Source: Escherichia coli (GTDB taxonomy: Bacteria > Pseudomonadota > Gammaproteobacteria > Enterobacterales > Enterobacteriaceae). From it: 64,000 bases of DNA. The DNA is taken from NCBI RefSeq assembly GCF_030384885.1, contig NZ_CP128613.1. The stretch is one strand, 5' to 3'. The notes beneath the pieces were generated by a model. That model had not been told where the DNA came from and searched no databases. It saw only the letters and a program-made list of their open reading frames with translations. The position numbers were made by a program, and so were the translations under genes. Positions 44,853 through 53,800 of this stretch are shown here, piece by piece. Position 1 is the first letter of the stretch, and each line of letters opens with the position of its first letter.

Positions 44853-45880
44853 TACGCGGCCTCCCGTTTTTTACCTGACGAAGCGGGTTTAACGGATGGC
44901 GGTGGCGTCATAAAGCGGGCATATTTTTGCCGCCGTAGATTACGTTCCAGCGCACAACGCAGGCGTCCATCAAACACCAGCACCGCCAGCAGAACCAGGC
45001 CCGCGATAAAATCATTCCACCATGCCGGAATGCGCAACAGCACCAGTACACTATCGATCTGCGTCAGGAACCATGCGCCGAGTACCGCACCGATGATCGC
45101 ACCGGAACCGCCGAGCAAACTAATACCGCCCAGCACGCAGGCTGCAATCGCTTTCATCTCCAGCCCGGTACCGGTCTGGTTGGGAATAAAACCGATCTGC
45201 GAAGCAAACACAATCCCCGCCAGTGCCGCCATGCAGCCGTTCAACGAAAATGCCACAATCCTAATGGCTTCCGTACGAACGCCCAGTTGACGAGCGCCCT
45301 GCAAATTATCGCCCGTGGCATAAAAACTGCGTCCAAACGCCGTCTTCGGCAGCAGCCAGGCCATAAATGCCACCAGAATTATCGTCAACCAACCAATTGC
45401 TGAAACGCCAAACAGCAGCGGGGCGGAGAGTTGTTTCAGTTCGGCGGGTAACCCCTCAATCCATTTACCGCCAGTCCACAGCAACATGATGCCCCTGTAC
45501 AACCCTAACGTGCCAAGGGTGGCAACAATGGCAGGGATCTTTAGCCACGCGACCAGGACACCGTTGAAAAATCCCGCGAGCAAACCAAGCAGTAAAGTCG
45601 CGACACAAGCAACAGGTAGTGAATATCCTGCGTTTAATAACATCCCCAACAGCACCGCGCACATTCCGGTAATCGAACCCACTGAAACATCAATATTGCG
45701 TGTCAGCATCACCAGCGTCGCGCCCATTGCCAGCAGGATCAGGATTTGCGCGCTGCTATAAACCATGGTTAGCGTTTGCAGACTTAAATACTGGCGGTCG
45801 AGAAAACCAGGCAATACAAAAAGAAGCACCACTGCCAGCAGGGCCGTGATTTCACGGTTGTTCTGGATAAATTTCAGCAT
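44852..45880 (-). CDS. lsrC: AI-2 ABC transporter permease LsrC
   Basis: 342 aa polytopic membrane protein. Confidence 0.9.
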
Positions 45881-47409
45881 GACGCCTCCTTGCGGTGAGC
45901 ATCACCGAAGGCGACACGCATAATGGTATCGACATTAATATCGCGTCCCGTCAGTGCCGAGTGGGTAATCTCTCCCTGATGCATTACATACACGCGATCT
46001 GCCATCAGTTCGATCTCTTCCAGATCGGAGGAGATAAGCAGCACAGCCACATTTTGTGCGGCGATGCTGTGCAGCAGCTGGTAGATATCACTACGGGCCG
46101 AAACATCAACGCCGCGCGTCGGCTCATCGACAATCAATACTTGCGGCGAGGCTTCAAGACACTTGGCGATCAGGATTTTTTGCTGGTTGCCACCGGATAA
46201 TGTCCGTGCAGCTTGTTCAGATTGGTTAAATTTAATATTCAGCGCCCGACGATAACGTTCCAGTGTGGCATTATCTTTCGCAGTTTTCGCCCAGAATCCA
46301 CGAAGGTTGTGGGTCAGGGCGCAAACGTTCCAGGCCAGCGAGGCATCGAGATTCAATCCGGATGACTGGCGATCCTCCGGCAAATAAACAAGACCGCGCA
46401 GTAAACGTTCTCCGGTAGATAATTTATTGATCTCCTTACCATTCAGCATAATGCATCCGCCACGCAAAGTGCGTAAACCATATAGTGTCTCAGCCAGTTC
46501 CGTACGTCCGGCACCCACAAGCCCAGCCAGCCCCAGTATTTCTCCGGCATTAAGCGTCAAGCTAACATTCATAAAACCTTCGCCGGTCAGGTTTTCCAGT
46601 GTCAGCACCGGCGTTCCGGCGGCATGTTGTGGGCGGTTGCCAGGTAACTCCAGCCATAATTTTTGGCTGGCAGAGAGCGATTTTTCCCGTAGCGCTGGCG
46701 TGATGGCCTGAATGATGTCGTCGGTAGACAGCTCACAGGTTTTGCCACTTAACGCGATAGTTCCGTCGCGCATCACGCTAATACGATCGGCAATTTGGCG
46801 AATTTCCGGCAGTTTATGTGAGATAAAAACAATACCCACGCCAGTGGCGAGCAGTTCCCGTAAACGGCTAAACAAGCGTTCGGTTTCCGCAGGGGTAAGC
46901 GACGCTGTAGGTTCATCGAGAATGAGAATTTGCGAATCGCGCATCAGACCGCGCAGGATTTCCACCATTTGGCGGTCGGCAATATCCAGCGATCCTGCCA
47001 GACTATGCAGATCAAACTGGCAGCCCAGCGCCGCCAGCAAGTTCTTCAGTTTCTGCATGGAGAGCTGTTTTTTTGCCAGCCCAAACAGAATGTTTTCTTT
47101 TATCGACAGGCTTGGGAAAAGCAGCGGTTCCTGGGGAACGAGATAAATACCCAACTGATGAGCATGAACTGGCGTTAATCTGGTGTAGTTGTTGCCCCCA
47201 ATCTCCAGCGTACCGCTATCAGCAGGGGTAATACCGGCAATGATCTTCATTAACGTCGATTTACCGGCACCATTGCCGCCAAGCAGGGCGTGGACTTCCC
47301 CCTGATGCAACGTAAAATCGATGCCTTTCAGGACATTAACCCCTGAATACTGTTTATAAACCGAGCGGGCGCAAAGTAGCGGTAACGCGCGGGTATCACT
47401 CGTTAGCAT
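45874..47409 (-). CDS. lsrA: AI-2 ABC transporter ATP-binding protein LsrA (two ABC domains)
   Basis: 511 aa from [23 protein letters not shown]...; two Walker A motifs ([18 protein letters not shown]); ORF-track start 47496 is a 29-codon extension. Confidence 0.9.
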
Positions 47410-47574
47410 GTTTCCCCCGTTCAGTTTTGCAGGTGAGTTTTGAACAAATGTATTTCTGCTTTCAATTTGTTCATAAACCTTAGGTGGACATTGCACATAT
47501 TTCCGACGAATAGATCACAATTTATGCTATTTTGATTTTCACGGTTGCGTTTGTTCATGCTCGTAGAGTCAAAC

Positions 47575-47590
47575 TGTGGTTGCTATCACA
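47575..47590. promoter_or_regulatory. Candidate CRP site (TGTGG-TTGCTA-TCACA) in the lsrA-lsrR divergent promoter region
   Basis: Near-consensus CRP palindrome in the 249-bp AT-rich intergenic region; lsr is known to be CRP-dependent. Confidence 0.5.
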
Positions 47591-47658
47591 GATATAAATG
47601 CGCAAGAACTGAACAATTGCATTAAAGATTTAAATATGTTCAAAGTGAAGAATGAATT

Positions 47659-48612
47659 ATGACAATCAACGATTCGGCAATTTCAGAACAGGGAATGTGT
47701 GAAGAAGAACAGGTCGCGCGGATCGCGTGGTTTTACTATCACGACGGGCTGACCCAGAGCGAGATCAGCGAGCGTCTCGGGCTGACTCGCTTGAAAGTGT
47801 CGCGATTACTGGAAAAAGGGCATCAGTCCGGCATTATTCGCGTGCAGATTAATTCTCGCTTTGAAGGCTGTCTGGAATATGAAACTCAATTACGTTGTCA
47901 GTATTCGCTGCAACATGTCCGGGTGATCCCTGGGCTTGCGGATGCTGATGTCGGTGGGCGACTAGGGATAGGCGCGGCGCATATGTTGATGAGTTTACTT
48001 CAACCACAACAGATGCTGGCGATTGGTTTTGGCGAGGCAACCATGAATACGCTGCAACGCTTAAGTGGTTTTATTTCGTCGCAGCAAATTCGCCTGGTCA
48101 CGCTCTCCGGTGGCGTCGGTTCTTATATGACGGGTATCGGGCAGCTTAATGCGGCGTGCAGTGTGAATATTATTCCGGCTCCGCTGCGGGCATCCTCCGC
48201 TGACATTGCCCATACGCTAAAAAATGAAAATTGCGTCAAAGATGTTCTGTTAGCCGCACAAGCTGCGGATGTGGCGATTGTCGGCATTGGGGCCGTGAGT
48301 CAACAAGACGACGCGACGATCATTCGCTCCGGTTATATCAGTCAGGGCGAACAGTTAATGATTGGCCGAAAAGGGGCGGTTGGCGACATTTTAGGCTACT
48401 TTTTTGATGCAAAAGGTGACGTTGTCACGGATATTAAAATACATAACGAACTGATTGGCTTACCTTTAAGCGCGCTGAAGACCATTCCCGTCCGGGTTGG
48501 CGTGGCAGGGGGAGAAAATAAAGCCGAAGCCATTGCCGCTGCAATTAAAGGCGGCTATATCAACGCACTGGTTACCGATCAGGACACAGCAGCGGCGATT
48601 TTACGTAGTTAA
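47659..48612 (+). CDS. lsrR: lsr operon repressor LsrR (SorC family)
   Basis: 317 aa; N-terminal HTH; divergent from lsrA. Confidence 0.9.
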
Positions 48613-48690: not shown

Positions 48691-50283
48691 ATGGCTCGAC
48701 TCTTTACCCCTTCAGAATCAAAGTACTACCTGATGGCGCTGGATGCAGGCACCGGAAGTATTCGGGCTGTGATATTCGACCTGGAAGGCAATCAAATAGC
48801 AGTGGGACAGGCGGAGTGGCGGCATCTGGCAGTACCGGACGTTCCTGGTTCTATGGAATTTGATCTCAACAAAAACTGGCAACTGGCGTGTGAGTGTATG
48901 CGCCAGGCGCTGCACAACGCCGGCATAGCCCCGGAGTATATCGCTGCCGTTTCGGCATGTTCGATGCGCGAAGGCATTGTTTTATATAACAATGAAGGAA
49001 CACCGATCTGGGCCTGCGCCAATGTGGATGCCAGAGCGGCGCGCGAAGTTAGCGAACTTAAAGAACTGCACAACAATACCTTTGAAAACGAAGTTTATCG
49101 CGCCACCGGACAAACGCTGGCTTTAAGCGCTATTCCCAGATTACTTTGGCTGGCGCACCATCGTTCTGATATCTACCGACAGGCGTCGACCATCACCATG
49201 ATCAGCGACTGGCTGGCCTATATGCTCAGCGGTGAACTGGCGGTGGATCCCTCTAACGCTGGCACCACGGGACTTCTTGATCTAACCACCCGTGACTGGA
49301 AACCTGCATTGCTGGATATGGCCGGACTGCGGGCCGATATTCTTTCTCCTGTCAAAGAAACCGGCACATTGCTGGGCGTGGTAAGTTCACAAGCGGCGGA
49401 ACTCTGCGGTCTGAAGGCGGGCACTCCGGTGGTCGTTGGAGGAGGCGACGTGCAACTTGGTTGCCTGGGGTTAGGCGTTGTCCGTCCGGCACAAACCGCT
49501 GTTCTTGGCGGTACATTCTGGCAGCAAGTTGTAAACTTAGCTGCGCCGGTGACAGACCCAGAAATGAACGTGCGCGTTAATCCTCATGTTATTCCTGGCA
49601 TGGTACAAGCTGAATCTATAAGCTTTTTTACCGGACTCACCATGCGCTGGTTCCGCGATGCTTTCTGTGCCGAAGAAAAACTGATTTCCGAACGTTTAGG
49701 CATCGACACCTATACGTTGCTTGAAGAGATGGCAAGTCGTGTGCCGCCTGGGTCGTGGGGCGTAATGCCGATATTCTCCGACAGAATGCGCTTTAAAACC
49801 TGGTATCACGCTGCGCCTTCCTTTATTAATTTGTCTATTGATCCGGATAAATGTAACAAAGCGACATTGTTCCGTGCGCTGGAAGAAAATGCGGCGATTG
49901 TATCAGCGTGTAACTTGCAGCAAATCGCTGATTTCTCGAATATTCATCCTTCATCGTTAGTCTTTGCCGGCGGAGGTTCAAAAGGGAAATTATGGAGTCA
50001 AATTCTCGCTGATGTCTCGGGATTACCCGTCAATATTCCAGTGGTCAAAGAAGCCACCGCATTAGGATGTGCCATTGCAGCTGGCGTCGGTGCCGGAATT
50101 TTTTCATCAATGGCAGAAACCGGAGAACGCCTGGTTCGCTGGGAACGGACGCACACACCAGACCCGGAAAAGCATGAACTTTATCAGGATTCACGCGATA
50201 AGTGGCAGGCAGTTTATCAGGATCAGCTGGGGCTGGTTGATCATGGACTGACGACGTCGTTATGGAAAGCGCCTGGGTTATAG
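48691..50283 (+). CDS. lsrK: Autoinducer-2 kinase LsrK (FGGY carbohydrate kinase family)
   Basis: 530 aa [30 protein letters not shown]... Confidence 0.9.
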
Positions 50284-50812
50284 TTTCATTGACAGCCACA
50301 TCATGATGACTGTGGCTGTTAGTTTTTGAGTATTGGTATTCTTATTTCCCTTCTTTAGAGCTGGCTTGTTAAATGCCAGCTTGCAGATTCATCGTTCCAT
50401 CACCAGTACTAAATTCAAGGGAAAATTGCTATTTTTCTTAAAGCATTAAGCATAACCCTTATTTTATAGCGAATATTCCTAAAGGCATTAATGGATGAAA
50501 AAGGGTTTTAATAAACTTCTGTTTTTAGCAATTAGTGCTATTCTTTGTTAAATATGATGATGATAATCTTCTTATTGAAAGAAACAGTTTTCTTATTAAG
50601 CAACAATAACTCATGGTTCATTTTTAAATAAAATAAGAACTATGCGATTTTTAATCTATCGATTAGAAAGTATTAGCAAATTAGCCAAATTGACACCTTC
50701 CCACCTCCAACCAACACTCAATACAGACCTCTGACAACTTAATAAGTTTCATTTTTAACGTCTGATGACTCATCTCTTTCGTGGCTGTATTGTTTGTATA
50801 TGGAGCGTTTAT
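50284..50812. promoter_or_regulatory. About 530-bp strongly AT-rich noncoding leader upstream of the autotransporter gene (likely nucleoid-silenced promoter region)
   Basis: No ORFs; long A/T tracts (for example TTTTTAAATAAAATAAGAACTATG...). Confidence 0.4.
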
Positions 50813-53800
50813 ATGAATAGAATCTATCGCGTGATATGGAATTGCACCCTACAGGTATTTCAGGCCTGCTCGGAATTAACTCGCAGGGTAGGTAAAACAT
50901 CAACGGTTAATTTGCGTAAATCCTCTGGATTGACAACGAAATTCAGTAGATTGACGCTGGGTGTTTTGCTGGCACTAAGCGGTTCAGCGTCTGGTGCGAG
51001 TCTGGAAGTTGATAATGGTCAGATTACCAATATTAATACTGATGTTGCTTACGATGCCTACCTGGTTGGGTGGTATGGCACTGGAGTGCTTAATATTTTG
51101 GCTGGCGGTAATGCCTCCTTAACCACTATTACTACCAGCGTCATTGGTGGTAATGAGGACTCAGAGGGCACCGTTAACGTTTTGGGTGGCACCTGGCGAT
51201 TGTATGATAGCGGAAATAATGCAAGGCCTTTAAATGTGGGTCAATCCGGAACGGGGACGCTGAATATTAAACAGAAGGGTCACGTTGACGGAGGATATTT
51301 AAGGATAGGTTCTTCGACAGGAGGCGTCGGGACGGTCAATGTTGAAGGAGAGGACTCGGTTCTGACGACCGAATTATTCGAAATAGGGAGTTACGGTACA
51401 GGCTCATTAAATATTACGGATAAGGGTTACGTCACGAGTTCAATAGTCGCCATTGTAGGATATCAGGCGAACAGTAATGGTAAGCTTGTCGTTGAAAAGG
51501 GTGGCGAGTGGCTAATAAAAAATAATGATTCCTCAATTGAATTTCAAATTGGTAATCAAGGGACGGGCGAAGCAACTATTCGCGATGGGGGGCTAATTAC
51601 GGCTGAAAATACGATTATCGGTGGCAACCTCACCGGTATCGGAACCCTGAATGTGCAGGATCAAGACTCTGTCATCACGGTACGCAGACTCTATAATGGA
51701 TATTTCGGTAATGGCACAGTCAATATTTCCAATAATGGACTGATTAATAATAAAGAATATTCATTGGTGGGCGTTCAGGACGGGTCCCACGGTGTCGTCA
51801 ACGTGACCGATAAAGGGCATTGGAATTTCCTCGGAACGGGCGAAGCTTTCCGCTATATCTATATCGGTGATGCTGGCGACGGTGAACTTAATGTCTCGAG
51901 TGAAGGCAAAGTAGATTCGGGAATTATCACTGCGGGGATGAAAGAAACAGGCACAGGCAACATTACTGTTAAGGATAAGAACTCCGTTATCACTAATCTC
52001 GGAACTAATCTTGGTTATGACGGCCACGGCGAAATGAATATCAGTAATGAGGGGCTTGTTGTCAGCAACGGAGGAAGCTCACTCGGTTATGGAGAAACCG
52101 GCGTCGGGAAGGTTAGCATCACCACGGGGGGGATGTGGGAGGTCAATAAGAATGTCTATACCACTATTGGTGTTGCGGGCGTCGGAAACCTCAATATCAG
52201 CGATGGCGGTAAGTTCGTATCGCAAAATATTACTTTTTTGGGCGATAAAGCAAGCGGTATCGGCACACTGAACCTGATGGATGCGACATCATCGTTCGAT
52301 ACTGTAGGTATCAATGTCGGTAATTTTGGTAGCGGCATCGTAAATGTCAGTAATGGTGCCACCCTTAATTCAACGGGCTATGGATTTATCGGAGGAAATG
52401 CCTCCGGTAAGGGGATAGTTAATATTTCAACGGATAGTCTCTGGAATTTAAAAACGTCATCTACTAACGCCCAATTGCTACAGGTCGGTGTATTAGGCAC
52501 GGGTGAACTGAATATTACCACCGGAGGTATAGTTAAAGCGCGTGATACACAGATAGCTCTCAATGACAAAAGTAAGGGCGACGTGCGGGTGGATGGGCAG
52601 AACTCTCTTCTTGAAACATTCAATATGAACGTAGGGACGACTGGCACAGGTACGTTAACCCTGACGAATAACGGCACGCTGAATGTCGAAGGTGGAGAAG
52701 TTTACTTAGGTGTTTTTGAGCCTGCTGTAGGAACGCTAAACATTGGTGCTGCTCACGGTGAGGTGGCGGCAGATGCCGGGTTTATCACCAATGCGACGAA
52801 AGTGGAGTTTGGTCTTGGCGAAGGCGTTTTTGTCTTTAATCATACCAATAACAGTGATGCCGGCTACCAGGTCGATATGCTGATTACGGGTGACGATAAA
52901 GACGGAAAAGTGATGCATGATGCAGGCCATACGGTGTTCAATGCAGGGAATACTTATAGCGGTAAAACGCTGGTCAATGACGGCCTCCTGACTATTGCGT
53001 CACATACGGCAGATGGGGTAACAGGCATGGGTTCGAGTGAAGTAACCATTGCAAGCCCCGGTACGCTCGACATTCTCGCATCAACGAACAGCGCAGGAGA
53101 TTACACGCTGACCAATGCGCTCAAAGGCGATGGCTTGATGCGAGTGCAGCTGTCATCCTCCGACAAAATGTTTGGCTTTACCCATGCAACAGGAACTGAA
53201 TTCGCCGGTGTTGCCCAACTGAAAGACAGTACCTTCACACTGGAACGCGACAACACCGCTGCGCTTACTCACGCGATGCTTCAGTCTGACAGTGAAAATA
53301 CCACATCGGTAGAAGTGGGAGAGCAATCCATTGGTGGACTAGCCATGAATGGCGGTACGCTCACTTTCGATACGGATATACCTGCTGCGACGCTTGCGGA
53401 GGGATATATCAGCGTCGATACACTGGTTGTCGGCGCGGGTGACTACACCTGGAAAGGCCGTAACTATCAGGTAAACGGGACGGGCGACGTGCTTATCGAC
53501 GTGCCTAAACCGTGGAATGATCCCATGGCGAATAACCCTCTGACTACGCTCAATTTGCTGGAACACGATGATAGCCATGTCGGCGTTCAACTGGTGAAGG
53601 CGCAAACGGTTATTGGGTCGGGTGGCTCATTAACGTTACGTGATTTACAGGGCGACGAGGTGGAAGCGGACAAAACGTTACACATTGCACAAAACGGAAC
53701 AGTGGTCGCCGAGGGTGATTATGGATTCCGACTCACGACCGCACCTGGTGATGGTTTGTATGTTAACTATGGGCTGAAAGCGCTGAACATCCATGGTGGG

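Follow-up and report, generated by a model that had tools for sequence, protein, structure and literature searches.

The lsrR-proximal CRP site of the divergent lsrA-lsrR promoter region in a strain of Escherichia coli

Among the arrangements known for CRP-activated promoters are tandem sites ('class III', for example acsP2) and divergent pairs that share their CRP sites, as in araC-araBAD and malK-malE. The region between lsrA and lsrR of E. coli has several properties in common with these types, namely two CRP sites, one strong and one weak, upstream of weak promoters, a requirement for activation, and a specific repressor as the second input. It is unlike them in that its sites are spaced by 71 bp, a non-integral number of helical turns. 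The individual site considered here, a 16-mer that we refer to as CRP site II, corresponds to the K-12 site placed by RegulonDB at -142.5, with which it has in common the locus, the pentamers, the flanks and the place in the lsrA-lsrR spacer, and from which it differs by a T for a C in the 6-bp spacer and by lying 1 bp further from the lsrA start. Site II is already known, as part of ordinary textbook regulation found in RegulonDB and in the literature, and it is intact and conserved in the present strain. We consider it very probable that the 16-mer is a genuine cAMP-CRP site, the lsrR-proximal of two, feeding a sugar input to the LsrR-gated divergent promoters. Four things about site II are shown by the present analysis: its sequence, the statistics of the match, the footprint across genera and its identity to the site in the catalogue. 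CRP binding in vitro and dependence on crp and lsrR come from the literature and concern the K-12 allele.

Layout of the lsr locus and its CRP sites

The DNA analysed, here called the window, is a stretch of 64 kb in which the features relevant to the argument are as follows.

45874-47409, minus strand: lsrA, encoding the AI-2 ABC transporter ATPase, heading lsrACDBFG-tam; ATG at 47409
47410-47658: lsrA-lsrR divergent regulatory spacer, 249 bp, 34.9% G+C
47439, minus strand: lsrA transcription start implied by the RegulonDB positions -71.5/-142.5; 30 nt upstream of the ATG in K-12
47441-47473: LsrR operator box A of the lsrA promoter, TGAACA-N21-TGTTCA, overlapping the RegulonDB-derived lsrA start and the core promoter
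47504-47519: CRP site I, TGTGATCTATTCGTCG on the lsrA strand, centre 47511.5; catalogued at -71.5 of lsrACDBFG-tam
47552-47557: orphan TGTTCA within TTTGTTCAT (47546-47558 region), between CRP sites I and II
47575-47590: CRP site II, TGTGGTTGCTATCACA, or TGTGG-TTGCTA-TCACA, centre 47582.5; the nearer to lsrR of the two CRP sites
47610-47642: LsrR operator box R ('p-lsrR-box') of the lsrR promoter, TGAACA-N21-TGTTCA
47652, plus strand: lsrR transcription start from K-12 TSS profiling (Kim et al. 2012 Table S1; 3 reads, 7-nt leader)
47659-48612, plus strand: lsrR, encoding a SorC-family repressor; ATG at 47659
48691-50283: lsrK, downstream of lsrR

A preliminary description of this region, made from the sequence alone, had proposed a CRP site of this very sequence in an AT-rich stretch of 249 bp between divergent lsr operons, and these elements are borne out: the coordinates and the letters of site II are exact, the two ATG codons bound the spacer on opposite strands, and the spacer, at 34.9% G+C versus 48.2% for the window, falls within the lowest 2.7% of 249-bp windows. 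Its anatomy was right as to the one CRP site that it named, and it missed site I, both LsrR operators, the orphan TGTTCA and the lsrR-proximal placing of site II. The gene identities are supported by NCBIfam equivalog scores (947.7 bits for LsrA, 613.7 for LsrR, 999.2 for LsrK, 667.8 for LsrC and 596.5 for LsrD, all well above cut-off), and the RefSeq annotation of E. coli 2013C-4282, whose lsrA-lsrR spacer is 100% identical to that of the window, agrees with them, showing lsrACDBFG-tam divergent from lsrRK. A similar spacer is found in 4178 of the 5426 complete E. coli genomes and is missing from the other 1248; three of 4180 matches to it are on plasmid-classed records. A search of 47250-47800 against Rfam (E<=1) produced no match, and the small ORFs within the spacer were set aside as purely mechanical.

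Downstream of lsrK, a long ORF (50765-56233, 1822 aa in the mechanical listing) is annotated in E. coli 2013C-4282 as an intact autotransporter of the ECSE_1600 family, with hipBA next to it; at this position K-12 presumably carries gene fragments only. The seawater isolate E. coli MB06101 (record L053, 4001-4047) has lost lsrR and lsrK, both CRP sites and the autotransporter gene's 5' part through a deletion that leaves about 47 bp upstream of lsrA; lsrACDB are kept.

Measured against TGTGA-N6-TCACA, site II agrees at nine of the ten core positions, the sole departure being A to G at position 5 of the pentamer, with TGTG and CACA intact in the two halves. The G:C pairs contacted by CRP are those at the two G's of TGTG in either half. 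When one mismatch is tolerated, this core occurs six times in the 64 kb, versus 1.99 expected, and none of 100 shuffles gave six; about 0.008 such matches are expected per 249 bp. Fit to the consensus was ranked by mismatches and not by a full PWM because the RegulonDB list has many misregistered or weak sites, and in a sample of 68 distinct catalogued CRP cores, drawn from Shimada et al. 2011 Table S4, only about 9% match the consensus as well as site II does. For five of the six near-consensus cores in the window, K-12 has a coinciding CRP box under a SELEX peak (Shimada et al. 2011 Table S3). The cores other than site II are these.

211-226: mlc/dgsA, a CRP box under a K-12 SELEX peak
19283-19298: ydfH, a CRP box under a K-12 SELEX peak
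28270-28285 (TGTGATTTAAATCAAA): the sixth core, with no counterpart in the literature examined
31459-31474: yneK/ydeA, a CRP box under a K-12 SELEX peak, 1 base different
39825-39840: yneE/uxaB, a CRP box under a K-12 SELEX peak

As to the catalogue itself, Shimada et al. 2011 (PMC3105977) give in Table S4, under RegulonDB identifiers, two CRP activator sites for lsrACDBFG-tam. Set beside these mapped K-12 sites, as the preliminary description had advised, site II proves identical to the one at -142.5, ATCTGTGATGGCAACCACAGTT (PMC3105977), but for a single base of the 6-bp spacer (C in K-12, T here), the catalogued sequence being the reverse complement of 47572-47593. The one at -71.5, AATTGTGATCTATTCGTCGGAA (PMC3105977), is the reverse complement of 47501-47522. 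Likewise, the CRP box that Table S3 assigns to a cAMP-CRP SELEX-chip peak between lsrRK and lsrACDBFG-tam is TGTGATGGCAACCACA (PMC3105977), the K-12 allele of site II on the lsrA strand, from which site II departs at one base of the 6-bp spacer, and two SELEX clones in Table S2 come from the lsrA-lsrR spacer (PMC3105977). A full-text literature search with the site sequences returned no paper, and they were found only in the supplement of Shimada 2011. In Hauk et al. 2016 (PMC5137460), the order of elements is p-lsrR-box, CRPII, CRPI and p-lsrA-box, with CRPI beside TGTGCAAT. Read on the opposite strand, this octamer is 47490-47497, and it flanks site I on the side of lsrA; the arrangement suggests that CRPII is site II.

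On the lsrA strand, one half of site I is a perfect TGTGA (GATCACA on the plus strand) and the other half is poor; with four mismatches to the ten core positions, site I is the weaker CRP site, and the closer of the two to the AI-2 uptake operon. The two centres are 71 bp, or 6.8 helical turns, apart, and their phase is imperfect.

The role proposed earlier for the region, activation by cAMP-CRP and repression by LsrR, agrees with the published genetics as well. Site II is a RegulonDB-listed activator site with a SELEX peak and clones, deletion of crp abolishes Plsr activity, and deletion of lsrR raises Plsr with sugar repression staying in place (bioRxiv 10.64898/2026.06.09.730415). Both LsrR operators are present in the spacer. 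The authors of that preprint conclude that lsrA and lsrR are both CRP-activated, and they predict CRP sites in the lsrA-lsrR spacer of about half of 14,923 lsr-positive Enterobacteriaceae genomes (bioRxiv 10.64898/2026.06.09.730415).

Conservation of site II across genera

Scanning representative genomes for LsrR led to lsr loci in Escherichia, Citrobacter, Kluyvera, Superficieibacter, Buttiauxella and Edwardsiella, and in records titled Izhakiella and Serratia. Fifteen orthologous lsrA-lsrR spacers make up the alignment referred to as A2, and two further ones were scanned only. In these 17 enterobacterial spacers (Buttiauxella left out) a CRP-like core is found at -75/-76 from the lsrR ATG, with Escherichia, Citrobacter, Superficieibacter and Edwardsiella among the genera. 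The right pentamer is TCACA in 17/17 and the left one TGTGG in 14/17, with CGTGG, TGCAG and TGAGG in the remainder, and the 6-bp spacer takes 13 distinct forms among the 17. Conservation of the site, as required by the preliminary description, is apparent in A2, where the ten core columns are conserved at 97% versus 47% for the six spacer columns and 74% for the whole lsrA-lsrR spacer, and where the contrast between core and spacer in a 5+6+5 pattern reaches its maximum over all registers exactly at 47575. Pentamers that are kept and a 6-bp spacer that is free to vary are the footprint expected of a dimeric protein reading two pentamers. Within E. coli, the 44 bp around site II are present at an identity of at least 90% in 4171 complete genomes. 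Likewise, GATCAC of site I is invariant in A2.

Two positions at site II call for a separate comment. Every aligned ortholog has the non-consensus G of 47579, position 5 of TGTGG, as well as the G of 47591, directly after TCACA. Invariant G's next to a freely varying 6-bp spacer suggest that selection acts on something beyond maximal CRP affinity; the G at position 5 may reflect a tuned affinity, or another, overlapping constraint.

Two records in this set have lsr spacers close to those of Enterobacteriaceae, Izhakiella australiensis (L013) and Serratia sp. H1w (L015), the former nearly identical to that of Citrobacter, which suggests horizontal transfer, contamination or mislabelling.

The lineage of the present strain carries its own allele of the lsrA-lsrR spacer, with C at 47463, in the spacer of box A, and with an extra A in the run 47475-47477, outside box A. 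The exact 60-mer of this allele is found in only 18 of 3937 E. coli genomes, and the extra A in none of the 14 other spacers aligned in A2; with it, the distance of either CRP site from the lsrA core promoter grows by 1 bp. On a larger scale, the window is oriented opposite to the K-12 map, and the distance between the mlc and lsr CRP boxes is 67.35 kb in K-12 versus 47.36 kb here. The shorter distance implies that about 20 kb is missing between ydfH and mlc (window ~211-19283), where we take K-12 to carry the Qin prophage.

LsrR operators, promoters and competing explanations

Perfect copies of TGAACA-N21-TGTTCA occur exactly twice in the 64 kb, both in the lsrA-lsrR spacer, and their hexamers are 99-100% conserved (100% in box A). 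Box R includes AACAAT (47612-47617) and AAGATTTAA (47625-47633), elements important for LsrR binding according to Hauk 2016 (PMC5137460), and the stretch between them matches positions -214 to -208 from the lsrA ATG in that paper, allowing for the 1-bp difference from K-12. No LsrR operator comes closer than 16 bp to a CRP site, so that, with no overlap, CRP and LsrR can bind independently, in agreement with the genetics.

The closest described operator is that of DeoR from B. subtilis. LsrR, a tetramer in crystals, belongs to the same SorC/DeoR subfamily as B. subtilis DeoR, and its match to the NCBIfam DeoR model has an E-value of 1e-46. The B. subtilis operator, ATTGAACAAAATTTCAATTACCAATTTACATATGTTCAA (TTGAACA...TGTTCAA), which is tetramer-bound (PMC11229326), has in common with the LsrR boxes the outer TGAACA/TGTTCA and a similar span, whereas the inner half-sites differ. 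In addition, B. subtilis DeoR has one operator, at the dra-nupC-pdp promoter, whereas lsr has two operators and an orphan half-site. The literature search found no LsrR-DNA structures. By analogy, each 33-bp box is probably bound by one LsrR tetramer.

The orphan half-site is part of TTTGTTCAT, nine nucleotides that repeat the right arm of box A exactly. Its conservation across genera is 96%, versus 51% and 42% for its flanks, and in most genera it is fixed at -107/-104 from the lsrR ATG; Escherichia, Citrobacter, Superficieibacter and Edwardsiella share this position, and Kluyvera and Buttiauxella have no such element. It is placed midway between the two operators, its start being 84 bp from the TGTTCA arm of one and 85 bp from that of the other, approximately eight helical turns each way. 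No description of it was found in the literature examined, a search that did not extend to the mapping paper of Xue 2009. A third LsrR contact at this place, by which tetramers would bridge or wrap the region into a higher-order LsrR-CRP assembly as opposed to four independent sites, strikes us as doubtful. If such an assembly did exist, the invariant G of TGTGG would keep the affinity for CRP tuned to the architecture.

The promoters themselves are less sharply defined. No lsrA start was found near the locus in Kim 2012 or in the Cappable-seq supplement data. Relative to the RegulonDB-derived start, site II is at -142.5 in K-12 and -143.5 here, site I is at -71.5 and -72.5, respectively, and LsrR box A spans roughly -1 to -34. 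Counted from the lsrR start, which has 3 reads, the centres fall at -69.5 for site II and -140.5 for site I. On these weakly supported starts, each CRP site would have its nearer promoter some 70 bp away, a distance of the class I type. A sigma-70 consensus scan of 47300-47760 detected no promoter and no terminator, a result that suggests little beyond the promoters being weak, and the text searched for constitutive RpoD promoters does not list the lsrA-lsrR spacer. Both of these observations fit with activator dependence. An alternative class II layout, with the CRP sites at -41.5 and with TAAGGT (lsrA) and AACAAT (lsrR) as -10 elements, was set aside as less likely because the RegulonDB positions and the Kim 2012 start of lsrR point to a geometry of about -70.

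How much of this regulation should be credited to site II is the question on which other explanations differ. The most sceptical of these, that site II arose by chance as a palindrome in AT-rich DNA and regulates nothing, may appeal to the fact that AT-rich spacers often hold short palindromes and that one position of the site is off consensus; given how few matches a sequence of 249 bp should hold, and given that a SELEX peak and a RegulonDB entry both exist for it, we regard chance as having practically no probability, and the conservation of the pentamers around a free 6-bp spacer, along with the published in vitro selection, refutes it. A more serious proposal is that site II acts as a class I activator of essentially lsrR only, leaving lsrACDBFG to rely on site I alone. 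The distances speak for it, site II being about 70 bp from the reported lsrR start versus about 143 bp from the lsrA start in a mirrored layout in which each CRP site has its nearer promoter at about 70 bp, as does the direct activation of lsrR by CRP in the bioRxiv model (10.64898/2026.06.09.730415). However, RegulonDB (via Shimada 2011 Table S4) assigns site II as an activator of lsrACDBFG-tam, site I, with its four mismatches in ten, is poor and may need the help of the strong site, and the lsrR start amounts to just 3 reads. We therefore hold exclusive service to lsrR to be possible, though unlikely, and prefer a site II that contributes to both promoters.

Other regulators have also been connected with this promoter. 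A 2021 study reported, by EMSA, that Cra binds the lsr promoter, and also that it activates lsrACDBFG-tam; a search for the Cra motif GCTGAANCGNTTCA with up to three mismatches found none in the lsrA-lsrR spacer, the nearest being within lsrR at 47781. More elaborate is the idea that CRP sites I and II scaffold a CytR-CRP repression complex (cf. deoP2), so that site II would repress as well as activate. In Hauk 2016 (PMC5137460), a G-to-A change in TGTGCAAT, beside CRPI, strengthens the promoter, and this octamer scored best (0.741) among CytR half-sites in the lsrA-lsrR spacer. However, CytR binding there is an in silico prediction only, the candidate is on the lsrA side of site I, outside the CRP pair, and no CytR data for lsr were found in the literature search. 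The geometry is also at variance with a CytR complex. In CytR-regulated tandem CRP promoters the CRP sites are typically spaced by roughly 53 bp. The 71 bp of the present spacer is wider than this, and it does not fit the layout of such promoters, in which CRP sites some 50-53 bp apart flank the CytR operator. Overall, a CytR-CRP complex at lsr appears improbable, and we retain site II as an activator site.

Proposed mechanism and significance

A model in which site II serves as an activator would run as follows. When preferred sugars are absent, cAMP would rise and CRP would bind sites I and II, recruiting RNA polymerase to two intrinsically weak divergent promoters, with site II working at lsrA jointly with the weaker site I. 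LsrR, probably as one tetramer per 33-bp operator, would cover both core promoters and block transcription until released by phospho-AI-2 made by LsrK. The two inputs would be read independently, CRP being required and LsrR acting as the gate. In this model we infer the promoter served by each CRP site, the class of activation and the stoichiometry of LsrR.

The present scan does no more than confirm that this strain has an intact regulatory region, in which a rare variant alters the spacing by 1 bp. The site is of relevance to the biology of quorum sensing and to synthetic circuits that use the lsr promoter, as it belongs to a pair of switches through which E. coli confines import and destruction of the interspecies signal AI-2 to times when preferred sugars are gone.
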